Assembly: GCF_000743755.1 (NCBI RefSeq) | Contig: NW_014569522.1 | Coordinates: forward strand, 1-62,695 | Reading direction: 5' to 3' | DNA from: Blastocystis sp. subtype 4 | Lineage: Eukaryota | Length of the DNA stretch: 62,695 bases | Shown here: one piece after another, positions 4,603 to 51,700 of the stretch | Numbering within the stretch: position 1 is the stretch's first letter | Layout: every line of letters starts with the position of its first letter | The notes under the pieces: generated by a model | Told to the model about the DNA's origin: nothing | The model's input: the letters and a program-made list of their open reading frames with translations, nothing else | The model's database searches: none | Program-made: the position numbers and the translations under genes

Positions 4603-6362
4603 ATGAGGCTGGTTCTCATTGTTTTTACTCTCGTAGTCACATCCGTTGTTCATGTTCTGTTTGTGGAACTAAGCCGAATACTGGTGCGACAAAGTGACAG
4701 TCATGTGACTTCTATGACTGCTGAATTTGGTACCTCAACCATCATGGCACCTGGCCCAGTCTTTCTTTCTTGGGATATGATGGTTTCGGAGCGAAATGAA
4801 GCCAGCTGCTGTGCTACTCATATCGGTAGTGATGATCTGATGGCGGAGCGCTTTGGAGTAATAACTGATTGCCTTGATGTCGTGTCACCTTCTTTTGGGA
4901 TAGTTCCTTTGTATCATTTTTTGGATCCTATGCCATCTTTATTAGGATCTCTTCAATCTGAGGAGGAAAGCGAGCTTCGTTTAGATGCGAATGTTGATTG
5001 GGAGGAAAAGTTTGATCATTTCATATCCCATGTAAAAGAGAATTATACTACAAACGGTAATTCGTTTGTTGATCTCCTTCCAGATCTCATGTGAGTGTTC
5101 ATTCATTTCGTGATGTCTGTAGACAATACACATCATACAAATTGTATATTATTCCATCCATGAATACTCCGTATGTTGTTGCGAAGAATCTCTGTTATGA
5201 TAACAGGAAACGCAGTTTCATCTTTTTCCGTCCAGAGGAGTATAGTTTCTCATTTCGTTCATATGCATCGGCCTGTTCTCTTTCCTGCCCCTCTTCATCA
5301 TGTAGATTTCCGTTGGGGCTGGAGTTACAAGGTGGTTAAGGGCTCTATTCCATCCACAGCGACATGGGTTAACGAATCCTCCGTTTTTATCGGTTCTCCA
5401 TTTTTAACTCATCACATCACTCATTTCTCAGAATCAGTGAACCAGCTACTTATCAAATTACGGTATCCCTCCTTGTATCCGCCTGTTGCTGCTGTCTTCT
5501 TACCCAAGTTTGATCTTCTTCATGAATTTGAATGGTCTGTTTCCTACGTTAAGCTCCTGATGTCAGTCTTTCCTCATCCTATTCGATTTCTCACGAAAGA
5601 TCGAGAACATGATATGCTCTGTTTCAAATCGGCGGTATTTTTGGAATTCATTTATTAATGATTAGGTTATGATGGATCGAATGGCCTTTCATAATGAAGG
5701 AGGTGTGTTTGGAGGGTTTTTCTCGCAAGATACAATGCGAAGCCTTGCCTACAAATACAGTAACATTCATGCCAATTTAGATCGATGTAATGGGGGATCC
5801 CACAATTTACTCATCGTGAAGAGAAGGAATAGCCGAAGATGGGTGAGGGAGATGATGTATGAAAAAATGATTAAGCGCACTTGGGGTAATGTAATAACTG
5901 GATTATTCAGTTATTAGTAGAAACTGAATGTCAGCAGCTCTTACTTCGATAAAATGTCTCTTAGCCAACAGGTTCGTTTGATGTATAATACAGATATCAT
6001 ATTGTCGGGTCATGGATCCGCATTGGCTAATGCAATGTTTGCTCGTCCTCATTCTGCATTGATTGAATGTCATCCTCCGTACTTTTATGAGATGTGCTTT
6101 GCAAATATTGCATTCATTTCGCGTCTCTTTTATGTGGCTGTTAACAATTATGATAAGAAGATACTAATAAACAGTCATTATCCTCCTGCAGAAGTCTTAT
6201 ATGAGAGAGGAAGCTTTTATAGTAAGAGAAGATCGTTTGCAGCTGGTCAAATCTACCCTAATCCACTATTAGTGAAAAGTGCCATTCAAATGGCTGTTGA
6301 TTATGTAGAAAGGAAGCAATGTGTAACATGTACAAATGATTATTGGTCCCAAGTCTATTACT
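4603..6362 (+). CDS. Glycosyltransferase family 61-like (DUF563) membrane/secreted protein; stop predicted to be made by polyadenylation
   Basis: N-terminal hydrophobic anchor; THHITHF, MSLSQQVRLMYNTDIILSGHGSALANAMF; TGTTTGTT at 6367-6374. Confidence 0.75.
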
Positions 6363-6388
6363 CAAATGTTTGTTTGAACAAGAGTGGA

Positions 6389-7295
6389 AAACGACTACTT
6401 CAACCTCCATTACTTGGGGAGATAACACAAGGCTCAGAGGCTTTGATAACAGGTTCTTCTCCTTTCCAGTAGATTTTACATCACATAGAATTTGCACATC
6501 TTCTTTGGAGGTCTCTTGAAGCTCAATATGGATTGGGAGATATCCTGACTGGTGGATTTGATAAAAGCGGTCTGGATTGAAAAGTTCGCGGATGGTACAA
6601 TTCACATCAAGCAAACCCGATTCGAGAACCTCTGATTCGTTTCTATACACAAGTTCTAAACCCTTTCCAGTAATATCAAGCGTTGAACGCAATTCTAATG
6701 AAGAATCTATGGGAACAACAAGATACAATTAATACATCGCAATACAAATGATGAACTCATAAAAGAGGAATAATATACAGTTTCATTGGCAAGATCGGTA
6801 ACACGACAGAACAATCGAGAATCTTGGCCTGGAACAACATCTATTTGGATTTCTTGACAGTAATCACGATTGCTATGATAATAGAAGCGATTCCTTTCTG
6901 ATTCGTTCCATTCAAGATCCTTTTCATCCGCATCGGCTCTTCCAGTAATGCAAACTACTTTGGTGGGGTGATTTGCATGATAAGAAAACCCCACGATTGA
7001 TGAAGAGAGGAGAGTCACATTTGTAATAGAAAAATCAAATGGTGTCTTCTCTATAACATTAAAAAGAATAAGAACAATCGTACCAAAAGGATTCGTTGTG
7101 TATTGGCCTCGAATCCGTTGAAGAGTTATCGAAATGATATTGCCGCCACGACCATCACATGGACTAATAAAATTTAGAATCTAAAGTAGTGAAGGACACA
7201 TCGAATTGTACAGCCACAAGAATCAATAAACTCAACAGTGATTTGAAACTCGTATATCGTAGTGTAGATGGATGTTCTTTCATAACGAAACCCAT
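6389..7295 (-). CDS. Hypothetical protein with N-terminal hydrophobic segment
   Basis: ORFs 6707..7018 and 6258..6728 are joined by short introns. The 3' end is inferred from a weak motif variant (CTCTTGTT). Confidence 0.55.
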
Positions 7296-7430
7296 GTTTC
7301 CAACCAAGAAAATGACTATCGAATCATCGTTTTCTTTGAATTTTTGTTATTTTATGTGTACAGGAGTAGATTAGATATCTTGTCATTTGACAAGTGACAT
7401 GAACGATTCAAAAACGAAAAACCAGTAAGA

Positions 7431-8890
7431 ATGAAGCGAGGAGTTGCTATGATCACGGAATTCTTTTTTCCAAGATGCGGAGGAGTGGAAATGCACGTTA
7501 TGTCTTTGTGTAAAGCTTTATTGAAGTATGGTTATCACGTATTTTGGTCTCACTCTGGACTAATATGCAGGTGATTGTTATAACACGATATGATGTGAAT
7601 CACTTAGGATACGAGTTGTATGATAATATCTTGCCAGTATATTATCTTCCATTGGAGAATATGACAATGGGTACCATTTTCCCTTACTATTTTATTTGGA
7701 TGCCACTTCTTCGAAAAGTAGGGTAAGACGGAGTGAATAATTCTAGATCCTTTTGAAAGAACATATTGATATCGTTCATTATCATCAGTGTACTAGTGTG
7801 ATGTTCCATACTTCTGTTCGTCAGTGTGAACTTATGAATCTTCATACTGTTTATACAGACCATAGTCTAATGAATTTGGATGATGTATCTGGAATTCTCA
7901 TTAACAAGGTTCTACAGTGTTATTCTTGCAATTTGGATGCATTTATTTGTGTCTCTCATGCAAATTGTGTGAACTTTCTTCAGCGACAACACTACCAAAC
8001 AAAACCTAATAATGTGTACATTATACCAAATGCAGTGGATTCAAAGCCATTTCTTAAGGATTATTCCTCTCATTCTCTTGTACAAAATGTCATTAACCAA
8101 TTTCGTCAGCCTTTTGATAATTCTATTACTGTTATCGTTCTTGCTCGATTAGTCTATCGAAAGGGAGTCTTTCTGTTAGAACAGGTCATTGATCGAATTC
8201 TATCAGAATATCCCAACGTGAACTTTTTGATTGGAGGTAGTGGAGATCAAGAAGTGATTATTCAAAGCCAGGCAATTCGTTGGAATGAACGTTGTAATCG
8301 AACCAGAATTCTGATGTTAGGAGAGATCAGTCACGAGAATGTTCCTGCTTTTTTTGTACGATTTGTTTCTTTCTCTGAGAACTAGTCTTGTGGTGACATC
8401 TTCCTTTCCTGTTCATTAACCGAATCTTTCAATATCACTCTATTGGAAGCATTTGTGTATCTTTATTGACCTGAAATGATTCATAGTTCCGGATGCAAGA
8501 TTGTATCCACCAATGTTGGAGGGATTCCCGAATTGTTGCCAATGAATTACGGATATTTTGTGGATCCTTCCGTTGAGGCATTGGTGGAAGCTTTGAGGAA
8601 ATGTCTGATTGATTGTGTCGATTCGAAGGTTGTTCATCCATTACGACGAACTGAATCTGTGAATGATATATTGTCTGTATATGATTGGAATACTGTTTGT
8701 TTGCGGTTGATGTGTGTCTATGATCAAGTGATGAAGATCCCGAAAAAAACATATTGGGATCAGATTAAAGGATTTTGGAATCAGGGAATTGGGTCGTTTT
8801 TCGTTTTGTTGGCTGAATGGTTAGTATTGGTATTTATAAATCTTCTTTTGAATATCCTCGACTTTGTTGGTTCAGATCACCATTATTGGT
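7431..8890 (+). CDS. PIGA: GPI-GlcNAc transferase catalytic subunit PIG-A/GPI3
   Basis: MITEFFFPRCGGVEMH, TVYTDHSL, IPNAVD, RLVYRKG, SLTESF, VSTNVGGIPELLP and a C-terminal TM segment; TATTTGTT at 8895. Confidence 0.92.
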
Positions 8891-8986
8891 TGATTATTTG
8901 TTTCGGAAACAAAACACATTTCCTTTAATAACTCACTTTTCCTTTAACAACTCTATTTCTTTGTTCTTGCAGATAGTATTTCTGTA

Positions 8987-10117
8987 ATGAACAAGGATGC
9001 ATCTCCTTCCTCTACGTCTTCTCGTTTCGTTTCTCGTATTCGTTTATCTTCATAGGTGAATCTAGATCTTCGAGGCACAGCTCGAAAGAAGACGTAAGGG
9101 TTTCTATTGTCTTTTATTCTAGTCCTATCATATTCCCTGCCAGCCAACGTCGAAAGTACATTCTCTAGATAGTATTTTGTAATGAATGGTTGGCATCTAG
9201 TTAGATCCATATATTGATCAAACTATAAACTTCAATGCAGCTTCTTCAGTACAGAAAATAGCTCCCAGACCTAGTAAGTGAAAGAATTCTCATTACTTAT
9301 GACTAGCTGTGTCATTTCTTCCATTCCCTTACTGTGGTGTTACTTATCAACCTGCACAATGTTTTCCATATATGGTCATTTGTTTTCGATATACTCTCAT
9401 GTGTAGTCATCTCAAGTTCCTATTGTTGCAACCCCTATTCTTGTCTCTCCGTCATCAAGGAAACGGCCTTATCCACAACCATCAACCCCATCTCAAGAAG
9501 ATACGTCTTTGCACACGTTTATGTTATATCTTCGACAGCAATACGCATTTTGCCCTCGTTGGTGGTATCTCTTTCGGTTTGTAATCAACCGGATCCAACA
9601 ATCCAAGAATCCTTCTGGATATCTGAATGTGTTACGATTACTGCTAGCGGGACATCGGAAAGAACGGAAGCTATTGGCGAGTTACCTGCATATCAAATAT
9701 GATGAACCTAAAGATACATCGTTTGACAAATGTTTTGACAAATCGAAGCATAATGCCTACCTTCATTTGCTGCTGAATGTATGTGACGAGTTCTTATCCT
9801 TGGGTGTTGCTCAATTTGAAAGCACTCGTCTGATACAGCATTCGAATTCTCCAGTCGTTGAAAAGGATGATGAAGAGCTTTATCAACGGGTAAAAGCATC
9901 AAAGGAACATAACCTTGAGTTACTGGATGGGTTTATGAAAGTTTTTACAGAAAAGCAGAGAGAACGTGTTGCACGGGTGTTGGATTACTATTCTGATCAG
10001 TATCGAACCTATGGATATGTAGATTATTTGGAGGTTTTTGAAACCATCTATTCTACGATCTTTAATGTACCAACTGCTGTGGAAGCCTTTCGAAAGATCA
10101 TGGATTCTGGGTCATGA
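8987..10117 (+). CDS. Hypothetical protein (S/P-rich N-terminus, helical C-terminal region)
   Basis: GT-AG introns link ATG 8987 in frame to ORF 9509..10117. Confidence 0.65.
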
Positions 10118-10585
10118 GTCGTGTTTAAGGCAAACATGTTAACAAAACCACACTATACAATGTCAGGTACGAGTTTCATCACAATTCCAAATAAACTGCA
10201 ACAACAGCACTGATATCCTGAATTCACAATCTAGCGAGCAAATGGAGGAGATAGGAACACTCTCTCCCTATTCCGCATACACTCGCATAAATTCACAATC
10301 GTCCAATTACCTACATGAAAAATCTCAAAAAAGGAGTATCCCTGAAGAAAGAAATGATAGACGATTTGTGTGGAATGCATGTCGTGAATAGTAATTGACA
10401 TATATCTGAGATTCTCTTAGCAGAAGCCTTCAATAGTTTATCCATCATTGGTACTGGATTCTATAGTCAATATCTATCTATTCAATAGATAATTGGGAGA
10501 AGTAGTTAATTACACAAGGATTCTAAATACTATAATATATTATAGTTGAGAACCATTTATTTCCATTCCTGCTGACTCATTCTTT

Positions 10586-11578
10586 ATGTCACTCGCTGAT
10601 ACACTTGTCCTTGAATTAGGACAATCTGTCATTCGATATGGATATAATCACACTCCTGAACCTTATGGATGTTTTCAATCGGATGTGACTTCTAATTGCC
10701 CTTTCTCATTTGTAGTCAATAAGTGAACTGTTGCTAGGGTCAGGAGATGATTTCCAACAACGAATTCTTGTTTTCTGGAAGCAAGTTCTAATCCAGTTGG
10801 GTTATTTTATCGGAATGAGCAATAGATCATTTACAGTATCTCTTACAGAAAAAAAGGTTGTATTGCTGTATCCTTATTCAACCTCCACCAAGTTTGTGAA
10901 TTCAACGATTGACGTTTTATACACTTTGTTACAAGTATAACTTTAATACAATCTTTATTGGTAGGTTGGTGATATTCACCTGATTCCGCAGTATTCTCTC
11001 CCACTGTTAGTTACAGGTAAAGCAAGTGGATTCGTTGTTGAGTGGAACCCGAAAGGGATTCAAATCATTCCTACTGCTTTTGGAGTGACCGATCTCTTTC
11101 ACTCCGTCTGTAGTTATTGACATTTCTTTCAATAGTAGATATTCCATCGACTGGTGATACCTTCCTTCACAGTAATGAAGATTCAAGGTATTTATCTCTA
11201 GATTCGGAAGGACTGTCTACTCTGACGTATTCTCTCTTGACCTTGCTTCTTCAGCTGCCCGTAGACGTATTGATTCCTTGTGCTTCGACAATTCTTCTCT
11301 GTGGTGAATGCAATTGGAGCCAGGAAATTATCCAATCTCTTCAAGAAACGATACAAATTATGTCTACAAGCAATTCAAAGTTCTCGAGATTGCATGAAGT
11401 CATCAAACATATTCAATTCGTAAATGGTGGGAGATTAGCTATTTGGAAGGGCTATTGCGTCCACACGATAGCGAATCTCAAAGATACACAAATATCCAAA
11501 GTCGATTGGATGAAAGGAAAACGGTGGAGTTGGGATTGTTTATTTATTGAAAATGATTGCTTTGGGAAAATGACGTAG
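10586..11578 (+). CDS. Divergent actin-related protein (Arp10/ACTR10-like)
   Basis: N-terminal TLVLELGQSVIRYGY actin-fold motif, LVTGKASGFVVEW, AIWKG. The true end may be 11532 (TG + polyA before TGTTTATT). Confidence 0.6.
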
Positions 11579-11643
11579 AATGCATAACATCCTCAATCTC
11601 AATAACGATGTATTCCTTGAATTAACTGTTTTGTAAACACAAT

Positions 11644-12530
11644 TCACTGTGATTTCTTCGTACTGTTCAAAGCTTTCACTCGTTTCTTTGCACTTGGTGG
11701 CATCTTTTCCACAGCATATCGAACTGCTTCCTTAATAACTTCATCCTGATGTGAATTCAAAAAGTCAATAACAAGGTCCAAGTGATGAACACTCACATCA
11801 CGAAGAATCCAACCGATTCCCAATTGAGTGAAACGGAATGAATTGGATACCTCACTGCAGAATCACTACCTAAAACAACTTATACCATTTACAAATATCC
11901 ATAATGAGATCCGTGTGTAAATCACGTCGAGCAAAGTACAAGAACGAAACGCATGCTGCTCGTTGTCTCCATGATGTTGATGATTTCCATGATTCCACAA
12001 TCTACTTCTTAGAGTATCATGAAGGAATGACAGGAATGATATCTGCATTTGCTACCATAGCTTTGGTAACAAAATGACAGGATAAGCCATCACATGTAGC
12101 CCATTCAAATACGTATTTATCAATCACCGGTTCCAACAGCTTTATATCTTCAACACGTATTTTCTTCACAATCTTTTCCAAACAGCTGATACCTTCCGAT
12201 TTTACATCGAACATCTCGTCACGAAGCAGTTCAAATCCAAGATCACGCATTTGCTCATCCGAATAATCCCTATCCAGTTACAAACAAAACGAGTACATAC
12301 TTTAGATGTTCCTGGTAGATTTCTTTGAAGATTTGCTTACGTTGAGGTTGAAGCACACCATAACATGAAATCACCCAAAAATGATAAAAACCAAATCAGC
12401 GAGATACCTTTAAATACCGATCTTGTTGTCTCTTTTGTTCTGCAGTTCCCGCGTCTTTCAACTTTTGCTTCAAAAGAGCTATAACCTATTTCTAACCCAA
12501 AACTCATATCAAGACAGGACTAAAATTCAT
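11644..12530 (-). CDS. AlkD-like DNA alkylation repair enzyme (HEAT-like repeat glycosylase family)
   Basis: RYLK..ISCYGVLQPQRKQI, FEWATCDGL, FTQLGIGWILRDVS, AVRYAVEKM match the DNA alkylation repair family pattern. Confidence 0.78.
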
Positions 12531-12626
12531 AATTGTATTTGAATAAGTACTAAACTGGTGCACTCGCACTGGACAATAAGATGAAACTCCCATCTAAAGA
12601 TCAGTAAACAGAAAAAAACTGATAAA

Positions 12627-15146
12627 ATGCAATACGTACCATTGAAGAAAGGATTCCAAGTTGATATTGCGGGACCAATTACGAAGTATCTGAAGAAGTC
12701 TCAAAGAAATGTAAGGTATCGGTTTCGTGGAATAAGGTATAGAAAGTCGATCCTGCTGCTATCGCTTCTCTAGAAAAAGTTCAGAAGCAACGAAATGCTG
12801 TGATCAGCATAACTGAGTACAAAGGAACGAACAATATTCCCGATTTGAAGTGTTATCTAAGTTATTTGGAACAATTGGAGAAGCTTTTCCCACTTACGAA
12901 CGACAAAGTGAATAAACGGACTTGCAATAATAATTAGATTATCAACATCCCTTTTGTGTGGGCAGATTCATTCAGCAAAAAGAAATACACTGTATCCAGT
13001 ATTATCTATGAGAAAGCAGCTGTCATGTTCAACATCGCTGCTTTGTACACGCAAGCAGCATTTGAAGCATATAATGTAGATATTGGATGGGTACCTAATC
13101 GTAGACAGAAGATATGACCGAAGAACGAATTCAATTATGTATTGAATCGCTCCGTTCTGCTGGTTTGTATTTTAGTGAGCTGAGCAAACAGTATTCTAGT
13201 CGTCTGAAGACTACAAAGTGCTCAGAGGATCTATCAGCTCCAGTTCTGAAGACGGTAGATTTGATGAAGAGATATGATTGGTTAGTTGAAGGATGTATGT
13301 ATTGCTCAGGGACAACATATGTTCTACATCAAGGCTACAATTCGTCAACTTACTCCAAATGCTCTTCTTGCGTTACTGAAGGTTGCTAGCGATGATTACT
13401 ATGATATACTCGAAGAATCGAAGGAATGTTCCAGATATTTCCCTTCTGGACTAATTAAGCATTTCGAGGTAAGAATGATCACACAAGGTGAGATGTAGTT
13501 GCAATCATCTCTTACTGCTATATGTACTTTCCATTTCTATGGAGAAGTGCTTCTCAATGATCCTGAGAAGAACTCTGGATCATTATATTGTCTTGCTGAT
13601 GCTATTGAAGTACTTTTGGGCAATATGGCGTAATTGGGTTAGGCTGCCGAAACTGCCACAAAGAAGTTAATGACGACATTCCATTTGGAGCGTCATGATG
13701 AGATTCAAGCGAAGCAAGTATTTGATATGATCAAGGATGACCGTAGAAAGTTCTTCGCCCAATATCGTATTTATGTAAAGATTCCCGCAGTTGAGTTCAG
13801 TTATAGGGAGGAATTGTACCAAAGGAGTTACAGCTTCCAGCTGGTGTTAACAAAATGACATTAGTTGGAATGAGAATGGGCACTCATATCATAGGCTGAG
13901 GATCTCCAGTTGACAGAAGTACCACTGAGTTTCCCTGCGGTAGAGGCAAGTCCTGCTTTGAAGCATGTACTAACAATCTATGGTCAAGAGAGAACAAAAC
14001 GTCAGGAGGCAATGAATAAGCTGGTAAGTGAAGCTACACAGCAACTCTCGAGTCTGATGTGTGAGTATTTGCTTCCTGATATTGTGATGAATGGAATGAT
14101 GAGGTAATGATTAGTTGACTGCTGAAGGATTCTCATCTGGTCTGCCTAAGTCGATGGAAGCGAAGATTCGTGATATTCAACTGAAGGGAAGTGCAAGGAA
14201 GGTATTGGAGATGAGCAATATTGCTGAGAGCAAGTATTTGGATGTGGAGGGTATGTGGTGAGTATGAGTGAGTGTGATTGTGACTGAATGAAATGAGAGT
14301 GTGATTGAATAGAGAGATGATGTATCCCGACTGTGAGTGGAGTAATTGTGATGACTGAATTGTACACTAATCAATTGAACCCATTCTAACCTTCAGAACT
14401 GTTTAATACCATCAAGACACAAGTGAGACCAAATACTGATGAAGCTGAGATGATGGATTGGATAAATGGACTGTTGCCTACCTTCCAAACTCAGTTGAAA
14501 TCTTTGAAGGAAGATACAACACTTATGAATAACAAACCAATCATTTTTGAGGAACCAACGTAACTCCTTTCATGTCATGATATCAGAATTAGTTCGAAGT
14601 TGAGTCAAAGTTTACCTCAGTGCCCCAACTATCCACGAAATCAAGAAACAATTGGAATTCGAAACGCCAGTGATCGAGCTTCGAAACTCCTGCAGCAGCG
14701 AAAAGAATTATTGCAATCGTTGATGCTAAACCAAGAGGGAGAAATGATTCTTCGAGGCAAGGTTCAAGGAACTACCAATGCGTTGAATGTGAAGGTGAGC
14801 TTGAATGAATGGAACTAATTGGTAGACTATTGTATATGAGGCCATGCAACCAATGGAGAGAGCATGCAAGGCCATTCGTGACAATGTGGAACAACAATCA
14901 ACTGTGGAGGCTGAATTGAAGGTAAGAGAATGATTGCATCTTGAGTGATAGAGAGAATATGCTCGTTGGAATAATAGTCGTGTTATTACACCTGAAATGG
15001 CAAGGAGAGAAGAAGCGTTAAGAGATGTGAATAATTATTTGAATATTTTTGAACGAGCTGAAGAAATGGGCGTGTTATTGTGTGCTGTTATTCTTGTACT
15101 TGAAGAGACATTAGAAGAAGTCAAAACATCTCTTGGAATTCAGTGA
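12627..15146 (+). CDS. BRO1-domain / ALIX-like ESCRT accessory protein
   Basis: MQYVPLKK, IPFVWADSF, YEKAAVMFNIAALYTQAA, CIAQGQHMFYIKA, followed by a helical V-domain-like region; TGA at 15144-15146. Confidence 0.85.
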
Positions 15147-15192
15147 TATGTTTGTTCCAAATCATCATATTCAATCATAACAAACAAACTCA

Positions 15193-16779
15193 TTACTTAT
15201 GTCTTCTCTTCTCTAAATATTCAACAGGATACTTATCCTCCAGAATATCATGCACTTGTCTTGCTCTCTTTTCCTTCTTCTTAAACTCTCCATATTCTTT
15301 CCATGTCTTAAAACCATGTGGAATCTTGTGTGTCTTCTTCTTTCCTGTATGTGAATCCAGTGTACTTAAATCCAAGTAATGAGCTAATTGTCTTCCATCT
15401 GCATCTACTGGCACATTTCCTCTTCGATAGTCATCCATCTCTATAATCATTATAATCACTATACAGTTCTCACTTGATGAAATGAAACTTCCAGGCATGG
15501 ATTCTGTTGGAGGACGTTCTGTTCGTTCCCGTGGTTTTTTCGTCACACCAGGAGCTGTTTCATCGTAATCCCAATCAATTTCTCCTTCTTTTGCATCCGT
15601 AACATAGGAATAGTAATCATATCCAGCCGCTTGTGCTGCAGCTGGATCATATTCTACTGTGTTACTGCCATCTGCACCAGGTGGTGCTGGTTCTGTATCA
15701 CCTTCAATTCCTGTAGGGGCTGTCTCCATTAGAGGTTGGTCTCGTTGCATCGTATAAGCATGAGATCCCCCTACAATTGTTGCTGTTCCCATCAGAGAAT
15801 CACAAGCTGGAGGAACCATAGGATTCGGTCTGAGAGAAGGACGAACAGGGATTGTGAACTCAGGTGGAATTGGACCATCATCAGCAACAGAAGTATTTGC
15901 AATAAGAACCATTTCACTACATGTCATGATCATGCATCATACATACCTCGGAGTCCCATCACTATCCTTTGCTAAAGACATAGCTGAGCGAATTACAGCT
16001 AATCCACGAACCACACGTCCGAAGAGAGTACATTGATTGAAGAGAGACGGAGTGGGCGCGGATGTGATCAAGAACCTGCTAAGATTTCTAGATATAATGG
16101 AATTATGGAAATAGAACAGATTTGGACCATCGTTCAACATTACCAACAATCCAGCTCGATCCAGGGGCTTGTTTAAGTTCTCATCTTCGAAAGGAGCTCC
16201 ATAAATGCTCATACCACCCGTACCTACAAATATAACAGAGAGAACTCTATTACCATCGCCATCCGTAATATCACCTCCTAACATTCCAAATCCAGGAACA
16301 CAGTGATGGAAATAAGATCCCTTTAATTTCAGCTCATGTCCTCGAATACTCGCAAACTCATTTGTACAAAGACAATAGAAGTTATATGATGTGAGTGGTG
16401 CGATATCAGCAAATAACTATAACTGATTCATGTCTCCTATGGCCCACTTCAACAGTAATTCGTCCTCCCACTTTTTCACCAAAGTTAATATCCAAATTCA
16501 CTCGTGGACGAGGATGAACTAAAGTATAAGAACCATTCTAAGACGAAAGGACTTACCACTGGCAAAACGAACACACTCTTCACGACGGTCCTTCCTACCA
16601 ATGTCAACAGGCAATAAACTAATTTCCTACCAAATTGCCAAATCACAATTCTTATATTTATTCAGTTGGGCGAGATAGGGCGATTCATATGTTTCCTCTC
16701 CTGTTTTGTCATTATGATAGAGAAGACGACCATCTTCTGTCGTCAATACTCTCCATTCTGGTTTCAGGGACTCAGCCAT
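15193..16779 (-). CDS. WW domain + cyclophilin-like protein with low-complexity C-terminus
   Basis: EWRVLTTEDGRLLYHNDKTGEETYESP (WW); LFADIAPLTSYNFYCLCT, GTGGMSIYGAPFEDEN, LFGRVVRG (cyclophilin). Confidence 0.85.
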
Positions 16780-16990
16780 ATTGATTAATGACAGTCTGCT
16801 AAAAGTTAAAAAGAACCGTTTTCACGTCTAGATGGACAATGAATCTGATGTCTATGGAAGCATGCACCAATAACGAAAAGTGAATCCAAACAACCAATTC
16901 TTCAACGCATCGTGTTTTTATTGAAGTAATGTAATAGCTTGATAATCAACATACCACTGTACAGATGAAGCGAATCAAAACTAAGATTCA

Positions 16991-19099
16991 ATGGAAGAGT
17001 ATATTACGAAATCACAGAAATCTAGTATGCATCCATGTCATCCCAATAAGCATTAGGTCTTAACGACTATCCTCATGTTGCTGAGCATTACTACCCATAT
17101 GGTTATACTGAAACTCAGGAATCCTATCTCGCTCAGGGAACGGATGTTCCCGAGTTGATCATCCGTTTCAGTGCTCCTCACAAAAGGGAGTATCTTTCTA
17201 TCCAAACATTAACGGGAAATCGCACTGGTCATTTCATTCTTTTTATTGAAGGAGATGAAGAGCCATTTGCGCTCATGGTCGGTGAACTTGTGAATGGAAA
17301 GATAGAAGGCTTTTGTGAAGTGTTCGATCAAGAAAAAGGAAAGGTATTTGAAGGAACCTGGATAGAAGGAAAGCGTTGTGGTACCTGTATCGAGTATGAG
17401 TTTGGAAACGTTTCGTTCCAAGGAGCATATCGAAATGATAAGAGAAATGGATATGGCTGGGAATATCATAACAATGAACTTCAACGAGAAGGTATTTGGA
17501 AAGATGGTGTTTACCAAACTACATATTATATTACAAAGCAGATTAATTTCGTTAGTACAGGCTTAGGAATGACAGTCATAAGACAAAATGGAGATCTCAT
17601 TGTAGTGTCTTCGCCTTGGGAAGATAATAAAGCAAATGGGAAGGCTTATGCTTACAATATGACAACGAATAAGGTTGTTCATTCTCTTTTATATATTCAT
17701 GGGGATGCCATTGAGGATGTTGAGGATGTACCAATTTCATCAGGAACAGGAACAGTCACATTTGCTAATGGACTTGTCTGGGAAGGTTCTATAGCTGATG
17801 GACAGGCAAATGGGAAAGGCATTCTGAAGTCAGGATCATCGGTGGTATATGAAGGATCTATGTTTAAGAATATGCGTTATGGAATTGGAAAGAGTTTTTA
17901 TGCCAATGGGAATGTGGAATATGAGGGAATGTGGAGTTATGATACTCGAATGGGAGATGGGAAATATTATGACGAAAATGGGAATATCATAAATAGTGGT
18001 GTTTTCATTGATAATGTCTATGCATTCCCCAATTTGATTCTGAATACAAATGAAGAGTTTTTATTAACACATGTTTTATTGCGTGTGATTCATATTGGTG
18101 ATAATTTGCTGAATGACATTGTTGAGATCAATTTCAATGATTATTCATTACTTGAAGAATTAACTATTGGAGAGAATAGTTTGAAAGAACTAAGTGAATT
18201 AAGCTTGAAAGAATTGCTATGTTTGCGATCCGTTGAGATTGGACGAAACTCCCTTACACAATGTATCACATTTCTGAATCCAGCTAATCTTCCTTCAGAT
18301 AAGAAAGATTTAGTTGGTAGGACTATTAGTAACAACGAACAGCGTATTCGAGCTGAAATGAAGTCGTTCACAATCTCTCACTGTGGATCATTAGAATCGA
18401 TTATACTTCGACAAGGAGCTTGTTCTGATTTCTATTCATGTATTATTGAAGGTTTCTTGTTATCATTGTCTTGATGATGTAGATGTACCCAAATTGTGTG
18501 TTTTGCAAATTGGAGAGTTAATTCCATCATTGAGTGAAATGGATGGTTCTTATAATTTCTACTATGCACCTGAATTCGAATTGCGATGTCCTCTCTTATT
18601 CTCATTTTAACATTTAGCCTGTGATTCACTGAAGTCTCTGAGCTTTGGTAATCGTGCTTTTGTCAATACATTGGTATTCCGAATTCATGGTGATTTTTGG
18701 AATTCCTTTTTATTGTAGATATGCCACACTTACAAACTATTTCTGTTGGAAATCGTGCCTTTTTTGGAAAGAAGATTCGAAATTCAGAAGATCACATGGT
18801 GAATGCAAGTCGATTCTCATGGAGAAGTGAGAATGAGAGGAAGAATTGATTGTAGATTTGCCTGCGTTGAAATCTCTCTCTCTGAATAACAATTTCGTGT
18901 TTTATCGTGGAGTGACAATTTCCAGTAGGTTTTTAAAAGGCATTTTTAGGTAGATGCTCCGAATTGCGACACAATTGTAAAAGCATCCAAATGTTTCCCA
19001 TCCAAAGAGTTTCCAATTGAGTTAGAAGGTTAGGAAGTGATAATGGTGTTACTTGTAGGAGTTAGTCAGAAGATTCGGGAATCTGTTGTGAGCTCTTAA
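16991..19099 (+). CDS. MORN-repeat protein with C-terminal LRR-like repeats
   Basis: Many YEGxWxxGxxxGxG repeats in ORF 17155..18474, then LEELTIGENS / LRSVEIGRNS repeats; TAA at 19097-19099. Confidence 0.85.
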
Positions 19100-19191
19100 G
19101 GAATCATGTTTGTTGGAAATACTAGTACATTTTATGACGAATGGATTGCTATATAGCAATCTTTGACTGTTGTTTATCCAACAAACAATCA

Positions 19192-41375: not shown

Positions 41376-42530
41376 ATGTCTGGAAAGCTGAAAACAATCA
41401 CGAGTAGTCAGATTTATGACCTTGGTAGTGATTCTGATGAAATTGATTTCGGTATGTGTTTTTGTGATGCTTTATTGACATTTCAGATATAATAGTGCCA
41501 AAGAAGAGTCCCATTCCGATGTACCTCTTGGATTGTGGATTTTGAATGTAGAACATTGTCTGATGATGAAGATGATGACTTTTCCTTTAATGTGGACTCC
41601 ATTCAGTCAAAGGATCCTATTCCTGTTTCAAAATCGCAGGCAGAAACACAGTATAATGCAAATGAAGACAGTTGGGATGACTTGAGTGACGATCTGATTC
41701 CCAAGTCTCGGAAACGGAAGGGAGATGAAGCTGTGCAAGAGTCTAAACAGCAGCGTGTCCATCGATTGAGTGAAGTGATGGAGTCGATATTGTCCTCCTC
41801 CTCCTCACCTCTTCAAGTGGGTTCACCTTCTCCCGAACCATTGCCTCCGTCTCCTCAGACGGAATCTCCGTCCCCTCCTCTGGACGCTGTGATGCCAATT
41901 CAATCACCATCACCTCCACAGAGAGAGTCTCCACCTCCTCGGCTGTCTTCTCCACCTCAGCCATCACCCCCTCAATCCCCTTCTCCTCCGATTCACTCGT
42001 CTCCACCGGATGTTCCTCCATCACCTGAGGACTCACTTTTGGTTGAACCAGTGCCAAACACTCATTCCACTGAAGTTACAGAGTTCGGTCAAATTTTGCT
42101 CTTTGATCAAATGCTGGATAGTTCACATATTAGCACGTATCGAAGTGAATGTCAACTGATTGGACACAACCAACGATTATCACTTCAATCTCTCTATGAA
42201 GAGACTCCTGACATTCGTGGAGGGGCATCTTTAGAGGCAGAAAATCTGTTTGTTTCTGGACTGCTTGTCGTACCACGGAAACGAACGAAAACGACAGAGA
42301 ATTGTGGTGATAATTGTCTAATTCTTGTTTGTTTGGAGGGTGAGCCATCACTCCTTCGAGTTACGATCAATGGACATTCACACCAGATCAATCCAAGTGA
42401 TGTTTTGTGGGTACCAAAGGGGAATGAGTAAGGACCGATATAGTGAATGATGAATAGATATGCCATTATGAATGAAAGCGAAGATACAGATGCCAAATTT
42501 GTCTTCATCAATATCCGTAGTGATTACTGA
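41376..42530 (+). CDS. Protein with Mif2/CENP-C-type C-terminal cupin domain
   Basis: Acidic/Pro-Ser-rich region, then GLLVVPRKRTK...LRVTINGHSHQINPSDVLWVPKGNEYAIMNES..AKFVF. Confidence 0.65.
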
Positions 42531-42570
42531 TTGTATCTCTTCTTGTTTGAAAAATATCAACAAACACACA

Positions 42571-45500
42571 ACTCTGGACTATACATCCCTAAACGAATGT
42601 TGAAATTCCATCGATAGATCTGATTCATCTCTGATGTGGTTGTATTCTCTCGTTTCAACAAGTAAGTATCCGTTAGTAACACAATCACTCCAAAAGCAAC
42701 CAACTACTTCATCACACTTCAACCATTCTTACCACAAGCCAGATCCACCCAGAGATTGTGAATAACATCATACGAGAGTACACAACATAACAATAGATAT
42801 CTCCTATGAACCACTAGTCATGATGCAAACTACAAAGACAAACAGTGAAAAGAAGAATTAAAATGAATGAAATGACTAATCCTCGTGAACTAGGTTCTCG
42901 GAAAGACTCGACAACTGTTCGATTTCGATTCATCATCATTCCACACAAGAGGAAACAAAACCATTCAGAACAGATTAAACTAAAGAGATTTGAAATCGAA
43001 ACTAAGCTCTGTGCATTGATATCCTCGGAATACATCCACTTCTTTATCTACCAATCAGATTCCATAGTTTTCCCTCACTTCTGTATGGATCAGAAATGCA
43101 AATAAATGAGAATTTGAGTAAGGAGAATAATTCCAAATCAAAGTAGACCACGCAATAAGTGAAGAGAAGATTAAAAAGAAGGTAATGAGAGCCATACGGA
43201 TCAGGAATCGAATTGTGAAGGATTTGGGTACAGACAGTGTTTCTCCCTACAAATAATGCAAAATAAAAACAATAGAACCTTGTTAATAGGTTTCCAAGGT
43301 AATTGAAGGAATTGCCTGGATTCTGTGAGTTCGGGAGTTGCAGAAAATAGACACAGAGAGAGAAGTGGAATTACGAGGAACAAGAGGACATACAATGCAG
43401 CAACTAAATATGAATCACTTTCAATTCTAATACCATTAAATACTTCAGGAAGATCAATGATCCAATTGAATAGAATCAGACAATTCACAGCATACACCAT
43501 CGTAACTGCAATTATCAATTGATTGTCCATATTGTTCATTAGAACCTTTGCTTCGTTGATTATAACTGGTAAAAATGATAAATCCGTTCGATTGTCAATA
43601 TGGAGAGTAGCTGCGAATTAGATAAGATAATCACGAGTACCGCCACTTGAGTTCAACAATTCATTTATGTGAAAGATTTGTTTATTGAGAGAGTTATTTG
43701 TATAAAAAGAGTAAGTATCTTGTAATGATTTGACTTCGGTAGAAATAGCAACATTTTCTGGAATACCATTCTTTCCTCCTTCTTTGGATAATGCTCTCTA
43801 TCATTTCTTACCTTGTAAATCATCATTCATTAGTTTTAAATCCTTTGAAACTGAGAAATGATCAAACTGATTCATAGAAATTGAAAATCGAGCCTATTTC
43901 AGGAATGCCAATAATAGCCTACTTTTTCAAATAGTTTATAATTAGAAGAATGAGATGAATTGGAAAGAGTCATAACTCCTTCACCCCACTCTGTCATTAC
44001 ATCAAGCATCCCAAGAACAGGAGTATCAGTACTAGAAATGAACGAGAGAATGAATGAATACGAATGAGTGAAGAGATGAACAAGGAGAGGAACATTGTCT
44101 TGAGTCTCGAGACGATCACGAATCTGATTGATTCCATGAGGCAGTTGAGCAAAGTCTTCCCATTCAAGACGTTCATCTGAGGAGGTGAGTATGAGAGTGT
44201 GATGAGAATGAAGTGAAGGAGAATGAATGGAGTGAGTGAGAGTGAGTATGAATGTGAGTGAGAGTATGATAAGAATGAAGTGAGTGTGATGAGAATGAGG
44301 TGAGTGAGAGTGAGTATGAATGAATGAGATACTTGTAAAATACATGACAAATGATGAATCAACTCCACTTACCAACAACTTCCTCAGCTAATGATACAGC
44401 AGTATTCCATCCCGTCTCTAATCCCATTCTAGATGCTAATTTCCTTGAATGTCGATAATTATAAGGAGAATAATAAACAAATCGTACACCTAAATTAGAG
44501 AGTTGTTCTATTGTATTTGGTAAACTATCCTATGTCTGATTCCTTTTCTAATTCACTATTTACTTTAATTACATCATCAACACCTAATAATGATAAATAT
44601 GTTGAATCATTTAGAAGCTTATCAAGCATCTTATCATCATGTGATCATCTTATTACTACTACTGATTGATTTGATTCATTCACACACAAGAATAAGCTTT
44701 CATTCCTCAATTGGGTTAAATCAAGAGATGCAATAGATGGATCTAATAGATTCAAACTATTATGACCAATAAGCAATGTGGGAACAAATTGTTGGGTATT
44801 TTTGGAATCCACACTTTCAATCTTCTGTCGTAATTCTTCACTCATTGGACGTAAATGACGACCTGTCCAGACATGCTGAATGTATGGCAATAAAAACCGC
44901 TATTATTGGAATCAACCAAAATCACTTACCACACTCCCAACAAAGAGAATATCCATTGTAGTGGATGAAGTCGCTAATGTGAACACGAAAACTTCACAAA
45001 ACCTTCTCCCACCCAATTTGTTTTGGAGAGGAACTTGAGTTTCGTCATTCGCCTTCATTTGCTCTCGAAGCAAATTCAATTTCCCATCCAGATTCTGAGC
45101 ATACAAATCCTCTTTCAAAAAGCCAATGGCATCAGCAAATTCGAAAAAAGTCTGAACCTTAATCACGTCAGAATAACCTCACTTCTCGATAATAATTGTT
45201 TGTTAGTGCCATAATATACTGATTCAACGCAATTCGAACATCTTCAGAAAATGCTTTTTGATTGGCTAGAGATCAAACGTGGAAATATAGAAACAACAAT
45301 GAGAGGGAATTCCCATTAGCAAGGTGAGCAATCCAGTGGGCTTCAGAACATTCAATTTCTCTCGCCATGACTTATCATAGAAACACAATCGATCATGACG
45401 ATGATAAAGAGGTAACACATCTAATGTGAGATTGTGTTTCGACTTTTTTGATTCCGAATTGAACTCTGAAAATTGGATATCAGTCTGCTCTATGAATCAA

Positions 45501-47020
45501 TTCCAGTTTCAGAATGTACTGGGTGTATGAACACGACCTACTGTGTAAACAGTGGAAATCTAAGAATGAGTTTCATTTCTGGAATTCCAATACAGAGGGA
45601 TAATCACGACACACCACATTCTTACTGACAATATTCAGATTCGTACAGTAGGGTAAGGATAGTAATGGAGTAACTGGAACACTATTCCTCAATGTGTTCC
45701 TCGATTCTTACTAATCTAATGGATTGCTATAATATTGCCAAAAAGAATGACGTAATTCATGGAATCCAGGAATCGAGTAGTTTTCTGTCATCTAAGACTC
45801 ACATCATGAATTCAACATCACAATAATATGCTTCCAAAATCCAACTACTCGAAAGAAATAGATACTCTGATAGAGAGATTCCAAAATTACGACCGAAAAT
45901 GGACAAACAAAAAAAGTGATCAAAATGTATCGCAAGTCAGCAAACCGAAAAGTAGTTAGGTTCATTACAATGGAAATGATTACTAATATCCATGTACCAC
46001 AAGTGAACCACCGATAACTATTCTGATACATTTGGTGATATGGGCCATAATTCAGAACATGATCAGGAATCTGTGTAAGTGAGGTGTTTTCATGTAGAGC
46101 CAAATCACAGTGAATCCATCGTTTAAGACGTTGCCAAAAATAGGACGAATTATGAGATTTGATAGAGTCCATATCAAAGAAATGACAAATGAAGGATCGA
46201 ATGGGAGTTTCATCAATACGAAATAGACCTGAAATACTATTCCGCTGTAAGAACTCGTTGTTTCCAAAATGTTTGGAATTCTCACTCTCACCAACAGGAG
46301 TCATATGAATGTCATCACTTGGTTTGGAAGGGAAACAGACAAGATCACCAGCTACCAAGAGTAATCTAGTATGAAGGAAGAGGAAGAACACTACGTGGGC
46401 CAACGCTGCCAGGTATGATTCCGATACACAAAGGCATAGGTCACTTCGCCTTCTTCAAACTCGACTGAATAGTCGTTCCATTGCTCGTTTACTCGATCTC
46501 GAATCTGACTAACAGTTAGAGGGAAATGATGATGGCATTACTAAAGTTTCCTCAGAATTGCATCAAACCGAAAGAGATTATGACGTTTATCGTAGAGTTC
46601 CTGGCAGAGCGACCAATCACCATACAACATTAGAGCAGGTACAACAATAAGAGTTTCGATGAGCAATGACTTCCCCATTGACCTAGAAATCAGATATTGT
46701 TTCGTCTCTCACGTTCGTAGAGAATGGAATCCAAACCAGATCAAAAAGATCATGAGCGCGTAAATGACCAACTCAATGGCAATTAATGGAACAAGCAATC
46801 TAGGATATAAAAGGACCTTTATGAACTACTGTCGTAAGCGACTTTTCAATTCTTTACGCACCACAACAAGAGCATCGTCGAACTCCGATATTAACGTGTT
46901 TAAGGCGAATTCCATTGAACATCCTTATTCTCATCTTTCTTTCGAAATTGTACCAGAATCTTCTTTTACTTCATAAGTTGGAGAACTAGGATGATCTAAC
47001 ACTGGAATCTCGATACTCAT
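42571..47020 (-). CDS. TMEM94: TMEM94/KIAA0195-like P-type-ATPase-related membrane protein; stop predicted to be made by polyadenylation
   Basis: LLVAGDLV, AQLPHGINQIRDRLETQDNVPLLVHLFT, VMTEWGEGV, C-terminal FNIRLGMYSPE. Confidence 0.82.
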
Positions 47021-47124
47021 TGCTTGTTCTTATGTTCAAAAACTGGGGGTGAGTGGTCTCGGAATTTGGGATCCCAACAACACAGTCATTAATCGGTGTG
47101 GTCCCACATCCTCTTCAAACCAAA

Positions 47125-48739
47125 ATGGATGATGGCGATAGTGAGAACTATTTGAATGGAAATGTGAATCGACGGTTAATCTTTTCAAGTCAGCTAAGTC
47201 AAGGAATGGAATCTAGTCAACGAGGCAATCCCATCATTTCCGAAAATAGTATTGAAAAATCACTCGATGTACGGTTACTATCCCAAATGGATTTCTATAC
47301 TCCTGCTGTAAGTGTTTAGTCGCAATTAAGAGCTGTAGTTTACAGAAGATGCTTCATCCCAGTTATTTGAGTCTGTTAGAGATTCAAATGAGAATTCGTT
47401 TATTTATGGAGAGACTCCACAGAAGACTCCACGACAAGGAGCTAGATCCTTGTTTAAACGGAAGATTGGAATGGGTAATGGTTGGTATAATGTGTTATAA
47501 TTAGATTTAACACAACCAGAGTCCAAAAAGATGAATATGATTCCATTGGCACAACAAGAAGATGAAAGAATGACAGTAGCAACATTACCAGCGCCAGAAG
47601 AGAATCCGTATCTGTTACTTCCAGACGATCTCAACGCAGCTCTTCAGAAACTGCTTGAGAAACGTGATTTTTCCATTTTAGATGAGAGTCGTATCACTCG
47701 GTATCAGCGCGAATTCAAAGAATTACAGGTTTCGTTCGACCATTGTATTGATCTATAGCGGTTAGGAAAGGGGATTTCATCAACAGTAACATTGTGCAAA
47801 CATCGCTTGGATGGTTGCTACTATGCAATCAAACAGATTGGTCTATCCGAAGGTACAACAAAGAAATCTGTCATTTTGTAGTTTAAACTGTTTTGAATAA
47901 CAATTAGAAAGAAAGCAATGAAAGAAGTTCAACTTTTGAGTGTCATGAGTTGGGATCCAAGTGGATTATAATATGTAGACGAAGCACCTCATGTCATTCG
48001 ATATTTTGGATGTTGGAAAGAAGATGATTACTTTTTCATTCAATTAGAATATGGTTTCTATGGAAGTGTATCAAAATTCGCTGAACGTGTATTTGTCTCC
48101 TTAGTTCCTGATTTTAAGAATCGGTTTACAGAGGAAGATATCGGTGAATTGCTTTGGCAAATTTCAAATGCACTTCTATGGCTTCATTCTCATGGTTATG
48201 CTCATCTTGATGTAAAGCCAGACAATATACTTATTTTACACAAACGAGAAGCAGGTGACAAGAAGAGTGAATGGAATTTTAAATTAACGGATTTTGGGTT
48301 GGTGGGAATTCTTCATTCCGATGATACATAGACATGTAAGGTAGATAACGAGATTCCATCCGAAGGAGATTGCAGATATCTTCCTCCGTAATAGTTTGAA
48401 GGGAATTGTGATTTAGGGAGATTCTAACACGAGACTCTGCATTTAAGGCTGATGTATTTGCTTTGGGAGTTACAGTTATTCATTTGGTGGGAATGATTCA
48501 AAGTGATTATTTCTAGTTGTCTCCAAGGACATGTGTGGAAAAGAAGGAGTTTTTCGCTAATGTGCGTTCAGGACGAATTCCAAACGAATGTAGGGTATCT
48601 CCTCATCTTCGGATGCTTGTTCGAGTACGAATGGAATGAAAAAGGTAATGATTAGGAGATGATAAATGTTTCTGTGGCAGACCGTTTTACAATGGATCAA
48701 GTAGTTCATCATGTCTATTTCGATAGTTATCGGAAATAG
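47125..48739 (+). CDS. WEE1: Wee1-like protein kinase
   Basis: SRITRYQREFKEL, HRLDGCYYAIK, HVIRYFGCW, HLDVKPDNI, DFG, EGDCRYLPPE, KADVFALG. Confidence 0.87.
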
Positions 48740-48814
48740 AATCTGTTTGTTTGAACACTGTTTCTTTCTTTGCCATGGACAAAGATATTGATTCGATAAC
48801 AGAGGATGATTCTG

Positions 48815-50654
48815 ATGAATCCAGAGAAATGGATTCTCAGTATTCCTCTGTATTAGGGTCAATCGATACGGGTGACGTTGAAGCTGTAGAGAATGATACT
48901 CTTGACTGAACAATGTAGGTCAAACGCTGTCTAGGTGGAGATGGCTCACAAGGATCTCAAATTCGTGTTAATGGTGTTCCCCTACTTATTTATGTATGTG
49001 TGTGCATTAATAATTGTAAGAAGTAGGCAATCAACAAAAACAAGTATAATATTGTGAAGTACTTCGTTGAATCGGGATCGACTGTTCGGTGTATGAACAA
49101 TCTGAAACAAACCCCAATTATGATTGCATCCAAAGTGGGAAACATTAATATCGGTAGAAATATGTCTTATGTGTTTATGCCTAGTAAGTATCTGTCTAAA
49201 GTATGGAGCTCGGGTTGATGACCGTGACAGTAAGGGAATGACACCCATTCACTATTCGTGCCTTTCGGGTCAGATTGGAGTTATTTCCTTCCTCAAGCAT
49301 CATGGAGCAAGTTTGGATGTTCGAGACAACAAAGGTCGAACTCCTTTAATGATAGCAGCTCAAGAGAACCAACTCATAGTAATCCTACATTCTTACTCTG
49401 ATCTAGGCATTCAATTGGTTGATAAAGCATGGAGGACGGTTATTAGATCAAGATAGTCGAGGAAGAACAGTACTTCATTGGTCCTGTTTCCAAGGTTCAA
49501 CAGCAATTGCGAAAGTGATTCTGGATAGTAAATATGGACCTCAGTTAGCTCATACTGTGGATTTTGCAATCCAAACACCTTTAGAAGTAACAATTGAAAT
49601 CATGTATGATGATTAGTACTCCAAAGAGTTGCTTGCAATTCCTAATAACCCTCATATTCAATCTATAGAAGCTACATATGCGTTATTGAACAAATTCTCA
49701 CATCACCGAATTCGATATGAGATTGAAGATCTGATTGATCGGTATCTGGCTTTCCTATTTGTTCCACTTTTATCCATTGTTGCATTAATTCTGTTATCAG
49801 AAGTTGGATTGTTTAGTGGAATCGTCTCGGCAAGTGTTCTAGAAACATTTTTCATTCTAGCTGTAATAACACTCTTACTGTGGGTTTATTTGTGTGGAAG
49901 TGATCCAGGGAGTGTATTGGATGGACATCAGAATCTCAAACACTATTGGTTCTTAAATGCAGATTTGAAGCATAGTTACGAAGAGATTATGGACGGAACA
50001 CGTCTTATGACACACACAATATGCCCAACATGTGAGATTGAAAGACCAAATCGATGCAAACACTGTCTGAAATGTGATGATTGTATCTATCGAATGGATC
50101 ATCATTGTGAGTTATAAGAGAGGAAAAACTCATCTGTAGGTCGTTGGATTAACAATTGTATAGGTATTAGCAAGTATTGATTATCAAGGTTTGTGATATT
50201 TAGTCATCGTGTTTTCTATCTCTTCTTAACTTCATGTGTTGTATTATTGTTGTATGGAGTTTATGTGTTATTTTTACTGTACAATAGTAATTCTATTCTT
50301 ATCATGTCAAAAATAGACCAAAGTTTTCGTTGTCCAGATTCCCAAAATAACTGCTATTTTGTAATGACCCTATTTGTTGTGTTCTTTTTGAATCTGAGTT
50401 GGATGGGTGTATATTGTGTATATTTGTGGATTGTTCAAACTCTACAGATCAGTCGGAATATCACAACCAATGAAGCTATAAACTGGAAACATTATGCTTA
50501 TTTGTGTGATGAAGTTGGTATTGGAGGGTATAGTAAGCGATAGAACCATCAATTCCGAAATCCATATGATCGAGGGTTCATCCGGAATTGGCTGGAATTT
50601 TGGGGTATTCTAGGAGACAGTGGATACGGTGTTGTAAACACTCGTGATGTGTGA
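48815..50654 (+). CDS. Ankyrin-repeat DHHC palmitoyltransferase (Akr1/ZDHHC17-like)
   Basis: Ankyrin repeats (GMTPIHYSC, GRTPLMIAA), CPTCEIERPNRCKHC...RMDHHC, NITTNEAIN, NPYDRG. Confidence 0.92.
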
Positions 50655-50832
50655 TATGTTTTGTTTGTTGTGAATCCCATTTTAGAATACATTGTATATG
50701 AATCGATATTCTGCAGAGAATAAGATTTCAAGGAGTGAACCAGTATTTCAAGATTTGTTTTCTTCAATTCATTCCCGCGGGGATTCGACAAATAGTTGTT
50801 ATTTGTTATTGATTCCACATCATTGTTGACAA

Positions 50833-51679
50833 ATGAGGATTAGGCAGTTTATCGTTCTTATAGCTGTTCAAGTCCTATCAGTGTATTGTCTTGACAATGA
50901 CACTTCTACGAACCTGATGTTGAAGAAAGATGAGCATACTACAAAGTCGGACTCCGTTGATCTCCGTGTGTTTTTTAGTACTTATTATTATCGTAGCATG
51001 TGGTGTCTATGAGTCCTCATGTACAAGGATTTTGGATGCTTGTAGTTTGTTTAATTCGTTCTTTACTTAGTTCTCAAATACCAGCTGATTCTATACCAGA
51101 CTTCAAATAACACTGTAGATCATTTCCGATTGCTTGCTTATCAATATCTGGAATCTTCTTGTTCATTTTCTTATGTTTATGCATTTGGATTTCGTGGCGA
51201 AATAATTGAGAAGGTTGCAAGTGATCGTTACAAAGTCAAAACAATCCGGTGTGTGACTGTCTTGTCAACAATTGCACTTCAAGCATTAAAGTGTGACCCA
51301 ACATTGGATCCAGATATGGAGTATCCAGCATCGTGAGGTCCTCTCTGTCTAGTCATGTCTAGATTTGTAAGCTGCGTAAATGAAGATGGTGTCAATATTA
51401 ACGAACGCTGGTTTAACATGGATGGAGTGGAAGGTGAAGCAACATTTATTGTGGCAGATGATACAGTTCACTATAGATACATAGGAGATGATGCACTAAT
51501 GACCAAAATTCGTGATGATGGTTGTATTCCCAGTATTGAAGCTGAAGAAGATCCATTACTCAATCATCTTCTGATTGCTATGTTGTGTGTTGGTGTAGTG
51601 ATTCTGTTGTTAATCATTGTACTCTTATTTGTTCTATTCAAAAAGAAACCAAAACGTGTAACTATACTTCAAGTAAATT
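50833..51679 (+). CDS. Type I membrane protein with Cys-rich ectodomain related to the 35754/37097 family; stop predicted to be made by polyadenylation
   Basis: Signal peptide MRIRQFIVLIAVQVLSVYC; CGVYESSC...KIRDDGC; TM segment plus KKKPKR stop-transfer. Confidence 0.78.
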
Positions 51680-51683
51680 TCTC

Positions 51684-51700
51684 TGTTTGTTCAAGAAACA
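51684..51700. terminator. Back-to-back bidirectional 3'-end motifs TGTTTGTT-C-AAGAAACA
   Basis: Lies between convergent membrane-protein and HDAC genes. Confidence 0.75.

Follow-up and report, generated by a model that had tools for sequence, protein, structure and literature searches.

Poly(A)-completed stop codons in Blastocystis and related systems

Stop codons completed by polyadenylation are already known from nuclear genes of Blastocystis and have been published since 2014 (Klimes 2014, PMC4159000; Gentekaki 2017, PMC5608401; Genome Research 2025, PMC12129017). We analyzed a window of 62,695 nucleotides (nt), the whole stretch studied here, from contig NW_014569522.1 of Blastocystis sp. 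subtype 4. An earlier reading of its sequence, the original prediction, had proposed nine genes that end in an incomplete in-frame stop codon five nt upstream of the octamer TGTTTGTT or a variant of it, and had rightly regarded the mechanism itself as known. For one of these genes, encoding a BT1 transporter, an RNA tail completes the stop where the gene has none, and the same is predicted for the eight others; we give this reading a probability of about 0.95. Little is new beyond the published papers, apart from an RNA example that is exact to the base in a genome resembling subtype 4, and a pair of TMEM94 orthologues.

In subtype 7, poly(A)-created stops were described for 372 of 2,419 mapped genes (359 UAA and 13 UGA), together with 90 further stop conversions, the motif lying four bases downstream in ~96%; a shortened CstF-64 was put forward there as the hypothetical reader of the motif (PMC4159000). 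In subtype 1 the proportion is 26% of genes; what that paper gives for subtype 4 is limited to motif counts (PMC5608401). Transcripts of subtypes 1, 3 and 4 are reported to carry the motif at their ends, and tortoise isolates and Proteromonas to lack it (PMC12129017). In a subtype 7 reporter, mutation of the motif and two upstream T cut expression 324-fold (PMC6395660), and the position of the motif and the U at the tail attachment site have also been described (PMC4360255).

The window shares with this system (PMC4159000, PMC5608401, PMC12129017) the motif, the 4-nt spacer and the completion of U, UA or UG by the tail. UAA greatly outnumbers UGA in both (8:1 in the window, 359:13 in subtype 7), and the window also has the same conversions of UGA or UAG to UAA, the same prenylation argument for a Rab protein, introns of 28-35 nt and a similar motif density. 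As far as the published system is described in the accessible text, we found no mechanistic difference from it.

Among the papers listed by a literature search for nuclear cases, a single one, on Blastocystis, concerned nuclear genes to judge from the titles. In mitochondria the cut is set by tRNA punctuation, whereas the genes of the window form a nuclear set with spliceosomal introns, unlike intron-poor organellar transcripts, and a GU-rich element downstream determines where they are cut. The mitochondria of animals, dinoflagellates and diplonemids are similar in that the tail likewise supplies one or two A of UAA and no 3' untranslated region (UTR) is left (PMC4159000). Among nuclear genes, the Tyr-to-stop change in PAY* and the UAG-to-UAA change in mouse thymidylate synthase are also tail-made or tail-changed stops (PMC4159000), to which the BT1 end (TAC) and the end at 15144 (TGA) look similar; they concern alternative isoforms in a small number of genes, whereas here this is apparently the normal end of many genes.

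RNA tails and the BT1 transporter gene

Among seven sequencing runs listed for the window, one (X1) contains 0.67 of the words. Its contigs splice out GT-AG introns, mostly of 28-35 nt, as expected for nuclear genes with introns of about 30 nt, so X1 is RNA, although its library type is unrecorded. Contigs of X1 and of two further runs, X2 and X3, were aligned to positions 33000-52900, and those of X1 also to 5900-25800; the pieces contributed by X2 and X3 in the former region were short, unspliced and free of tails. Tails were read from loose contig ends, of which 16 of 39 (33000-52900) and 6 of 22 (5900-25800) were listed, and all statements on tails below refer to these.

At least five poly(A) tails were found, at 15144, 15190, 22061, 36994 and 37736. 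Four of them start at position -5 of an exact or one-mismatch motif and the fifth, at 15190, at -4; the -4 position is a genomic A there, consistent with a cut at -5, so all five tails fit a poly(A) site separated by four bases from the motif that follows it. At 15144 the cut falls after the T of a genomic TGA and the tail converts it directly to UAA.

The tail at 22061 terminates the BT1 transporter gene. It consists of 22 T before 22061 on a spliced X1 contig of 1437 nt. After removal of the two introns listed and of a third, for which a single 30-nt candidate exists, the spliced stretch is 773 bases long, equal to the RNA record, and open in the frame of the Pfam BT1 match, leaving two bases (TA). 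The genomic codon at this place is TAC, therefore the UAA comes from the tail; its first A may be templated or tail-derived. No longer BT1 form is present among the contigs listed, although contigs lose rare variants.

Motif and register across the window

The G+C content of the window is 38.6%, compared with 39.4-39.6% for subtype 4 (PMC5608401, PMC12129017). The exact TGTTTGTT occurs 27 times, against a mean of 5.21 in shuffled sequences (none of 100 shuffles reached 27). This corresponds to one copy per 2,322 base pairs (bp), in keeping with a motif found about once per 3 kb; the density reported in the accessible text is 1 per 2,751 in subtype 4, within a range of 1 per 2,751-3,097 (PMC5608401).

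The coordinates, bases, motif variants and codon phases of the original prediction proved correct at all nine sites, each of which lies in a long open frame. The base at -5 is a T in the first codon position seven times, the second base of TA in BT1 and of TG in Rab6; at the sequence level every site thus carries an in-frame U, UA or UG, and added poly(A) would give UAA at eight and UGA at one (Rab6), as had been claimed. The statement that these proteins have no genomic stop where they end holds at the sites themselves, with the qualification that an in-frame genomic stop follows each of them 4-47 codons on (Table 1).

For each offset from -1 to -12, the longest open frame was used to class all 27 exact and all 136 one-mismatch motifs. 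At offset -5, a stop made by poly(A) only was found at 6 of the 27 exact motifs (background 4.9%; binomial p 0.0017), and a genomic TGA or TAG cut after its T at five more (background 1.0%). Together, an incomplete or cut in-frame stop is present at 11 of 27 exact motifs versus 5.9% (binomial p 1.6e-7). A genomic TGA or TAG is retained at 5 of the 10 exact sites with a T in codon position 1, versus 13% expected (p 0.005), a small sample that hints at backup stops or recent loss. The T of a genomic stop also occupies the -5 position at variant motifs at 22037 (TGA), 32386 and 51705 (both TAA).

Manual classification assigned 20 exact motifs to gene ends, four to coding sequence in the sense direction, and two to the antisense direction, one being left without a class and the case of 33004 being uncertain; 13 of the 20 gene-end copies leave no 3' UTR. 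AATAAA or ATTAAA occurs within 50 nt upstream of only 1 of 24 gene-end sites, in line with the known Blastocystis system, which lacks an upstream AAUAAA.

These features point to the following mechanism. The mRNAs of this Blastocystis-type nuclear DNA very probably receive their tail five bases ahead of a UGUUUGUU element that lies downstream; where U, UA or UG stands there in frame, the tail completes it to a stop codon, as the RNA shows for BT1. Because such a precise cut could have let 3' UTRs shrink to nothing, the second and third stop bases would come to lie beyond the cut and be free to drift.

Table 1. Gene ends and motif copies in the window. A single T at a listed gene end is the first base of its codon
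Feature	Positions	Strand	Motif and end	Codons to genomic stop	Evidence
BT1 transporter	22049..22062	-	in-frame TA 22062-22061, TGTTTCTT; UAA made by poly(A)	47	RNA tail
GT61-like	6362..6374	+	in-frame T6362, 4-nt spacer, exact TGTTTGTT; predicted UAA	36	no tail among loose ends listed
PIG-A	8890..8902	+	in-frame T8890, TATTTGTT (one mismatch); predicted UAA	12	weakest of the nine
Rab6	24713..24726	+	in-frame TG 24713-24714, exact motif; predicted UGA	17	CXC end; no tail among loose ends listed
Hypothetical	34054..34066	-	in-frame T34066, exact motif; predicted UAA	13	sequence
L7Ae-like	38848..38860	-	in-frame T38860, TGTTAGTT; predicted UAA	46	homologue ends
AAR2	41205..41217	+	in-frame T41205, exact motif; predicted UAA	14	orthologue ends
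TMEM94	42559..42571	-	in-frame T42571, exact motif; predicted UAA	4	orthologue end
Membrane protein	51679..51691	+	in-frame T51679, exact motif; predicted UAA	9	sequence
Gene end	15144..15156	+	genomic TGA cut after T, giving UAA		RNA tail
Cyclophilin-domain gene	15179..15191	-	genomic TAA, 2-nt 3' UTR		RNA tail, listed at 15190
Gene end	36994..37006	+	genomic TAA, 2-nt 3' UTR		RNA tail
Gene end	37736..37748	+	variant TGTTTATT past genomic TGA and short UTR		RNA tail
Four gene ends (span 464..59929)	464; 2584; 38833; 59917	-; -; +; +	exact motif, -5 T the first base of genomic TGA/TAG; predicted conversion to UAA		no tail among loose ends listed
PIG-A, coding sequence	8694..8701	+	exact motif		crossed by RNA contig 7571-8785
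CENP-C-like, coding sequence	42247-42254; 42326-42333	+	two exact motifs		crossed by RNA contig 41552-42381
Nup93, probably coding sequence	27481..27488	-	exact motif		frame assigned by eye

Protein ends of the predicted genes

Homology upheld the names GT61, PIG-A, BT1, AAR2, Rab6 and TMEM94 (E 7e-5 for the last), while L7Ae is so far an atlas lead only (0.87). The named homologues of the window genes are from Blastocystis NMH, Blastocystis DL and B. hominis, at 51-63% identity; together with the G+C content they indicate a Blastocystis resembling subtype 4, which bears out the organism named in the original prediction. Three metagenome loci (L005-L007; 53-55% G+C) provided further orthologues; an atlas search with a TMEM94 exon gave no usable match, searches of solved structures returned nothing, and neither the L7Ae-like gene in the three loci nor Rab6 among assembled genome contigs could be found.

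The AAR2 protein of Blastocystis NMH, 55% identical, ends one residue before the predicted end. The AAR2 genes of the three loci also end one residue earlier, at a genomic TAG with G at -5 of TGTTTGTT, and the 14-residue extension has no match in the AAR2 orthologues compared. The TMEM94 orthologue (L006 and L007) has an identical last residue and T at -5, with a genomic TAG where the window has TTG. In this pair the stop is seen once with its second base intact (T|AG there) and once with that base lost (T|TG here).

The search with the L7Ae-like protein returned five matches, one of which (P0040) is the window's own read-through form. In the other four, similarity stops at the predicted site; one of them ends exactly there and one continues past it with unrelated sequence. 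In Rab6, a cut at 24714 would give a CXC C-terminus in place of 17 added residues; the same prenylation-end argument was applied to Rab32 by Klimes et al. (PMC4159000). Protein comparison thus points to four of the predicted ends, those of AAR2, TMEM94 and the L7Ae-like gene through orthologue ends and that of Rab6 through its CXC end. The predictions for the GT61-like, hypothetical and membrane protein genes draw on the exact motif and codon phase.

The reading of the mechanism offered by the original prediction is thereby backed by the BT1 tail, by four tails at sites that it had not listed, and by the orthologue ends. If it is correct, gene callers that require a genomic stop would add 4-47 wrong residues to the nine proteins and would hide the Rab6 prenylation site; read-through forms such as P0040 are already present in public collections.

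Alternative readings

Several observations weigh against tail completion at all nine sites. Among the loose ends listed, no tail was found at the eight sites other than BT1, and the RNA basis consists of assembled contigs of one run (X1), from which isoform levels are not readable; at the hypothetical gene X1 has no depth at 34066, and the listed contig at the membrane protein gene ends at 51658. One-mismatch motifs as a class show no position signal, with 16 of 136 at -5 versus 6-17 at other offsets, hence the three listed sites with a one-mismatch motif require separate support. Two L7Ae-like homologue clusters extend three residues past the site, in database forms. Markov coding potential, too weak to help, was 0.08 bits per codon for the pooled extensions versus -0.09 for coding ends (held-out coding mean 0.08). 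The PIG-A gene has an alternative end, a genomic TAA at 8926-8928 followed by the one-mismatch motif TCTTTGTT at 8958. Finally, RNA crosses all three internal exact motifs that are covered (8694, 42247 and 42326), reaching 96, 139 and 60 nt beyond the point where a cut would fall.

The PIG-A end bears on the alternative that survives best, unlikely as we consider it: the system is real, yet one or more of the eight sites that lack RNA are wrong, the gene concerned using its genomic stop; PIG-A is the likeliest, with a cut near 8953. One-mismatch motifs are frequent (136 in the window), a second one lies 25 nt past the PIG-A genomic stop, and exact motifs are sometimes passed over by RNA. A first homologue search with the last PIG-A exon found no match, and a second gave five proteins whose ends are truncated or divergent; at PIG-A the predicted coordinates and phase are right, and the end at 8890 is a candidate beside the one near 8953. 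However, to judge from the 95 letters to the left of the joint at 9023, the RNA contig of the next gene appears to have its start near 8929; the rival motif would then fall within the 5' leader of that gene. For the GT61-like, BT1, Rab6, L7Ae-like, hypothetical and membrane protein genes, no motif with up to one mismatch occurs within 130 nt after the genomic stop.

The tails could also be minor alternative or decay products of the PAY* kind, with read-through giving the main protein. The BT1 cut codon TAC is the codon used in PAY* (PMC4159000), contigs give no isoform levels and the databases hold the read-through form of the L7Ae-like protein. We regard this as very improbable: the main BT1 contig itself terminates in the tail, read-through would enter the coding sequence of the convergent MORN gene by about 120 nt, and the database read-through forms are gene predictions. 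In addition, the extensions are not conserved, the first residues after the site being YY versus SS in one homologue cluster (proteins only), a difference through which the first base of that codon can stay T, and the accessible text of Klimes et al. reports virtually no alternative ends (PMC4159000).

Chance might also have produced the nine sites, since T, TA or TG in frame is common near a T-rich motif in DNA of 61% A+T (background 5-7% per position, and one-mismatch motifs without excess at -5). This has a practically negligible probability given the 11 of 27 exact motifs versus 5.9%, the five of five listed tails in register, the RNA tail and spliced open frame of BT1, and the register shared by another subtype: of the eight exact motifs in L006, six carry a stop at -5 that is incomplete, cut or full (four poly(A)-only stops, one cut TAG and one copy after a full TAG).

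Exact motifs inside coding sequence

Since RNA crosses the internal exact copies, the octamer alone is insufficient to define the cut; cutting there would yield non-stop mRNA. Internal copies might still be used in part of the transcripts. In the CENP-C-like orthologue the same residues are encoded without an exact motif at either place. The frame of the probable Nup93 copy was presumed from a family motif.

The three positions 3-5 nt after the octamer are A at 36 of 60 positions at gene ends versus 2 of 12 internally (Fisher p 0.0096), a pattern noticed post hoc; 2 of 2000 random sets reached 36 A anywhere in the flanks. The motifs of convergent neighbours supply part of this signal, and without those five sites the count is 25 of 45. 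In L006 it is 13 of 24, two of the sites being one palindrome. A tentative and rather doubtful proposal is that the octamer is not the sole determinant of the 3'-end signal, an A-rich extension marking gene-end copies as the second one while internal TGTTTGTT copies are read through. If true, a cell with zero-length 3' UTRs would in this way avoid non-stop mRNAs from internal copies, and the genomic TGA or TAG retained at half of the ends with T at -5 would serve as a backup. The internal copies sharpen the question of how the 3'-end machinery passes exact motifs within genes. The literature search, with published figures and logos outside its scope, found no text on exact internal motifs being passed over or on an A-rich extension, which may already show in published logos.

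Convergent genes and other observations

Motifs of several convergent genes are arranged back to back. Pairs with a gap of -1 to 2 nt are found at 22037/22061, 38833/38860, 51679/51705, 34041/34066, 24714/24738 and 6362/6389; the pair at 6766/6791 in L006 is an exact 16-bp palindrome. The arrangement probably reflects a limit of compaction. A palindromic arrangement as a real signal was considered and rejected: 2, 4 and 9 of the 27 motifs agree at up to one, two and three mismatches, other 4-nt windows reach the same maxima, and the result is marginal.

The genomic stop of the GT61-like gene falls within the open frame of its convergent neighbour. That neighbour, on the minus strand, meets its first genomic stop only at 6260, which is 100 nt inside the GT61-like gene. 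Its in-frame T6389, ahead of a motif with three mismatches, may be a tenth stop completed by poly(A). Position 11532 was also weighed as a tenth case, but it is followed by a genomic stop as well as by another motif. At 32927-33016 (+), a gene that we take to be ribosomal-protein-S25-like ends ~77 nt short of the exact motif at 33009, and this motif overlaps the region in which the next gene, for a reductase, starts.

The highest X1 contig depth by far is found over an intron-free open frame of 412 amino acids with a signal-peptide-like start (35754-36989, +); it has no Pfam match and its cluster comprises 24 unnamed members. A frame of 226 codons resembling it, with no obvious start, lies at 37031-37708 (+). 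Three RNA joints skip 146, 196 and 116 nt (14249-14396, 44176-44373 and 52735-52852), far above the usual 30 nt, and possibly represent exon skipping or long introns.

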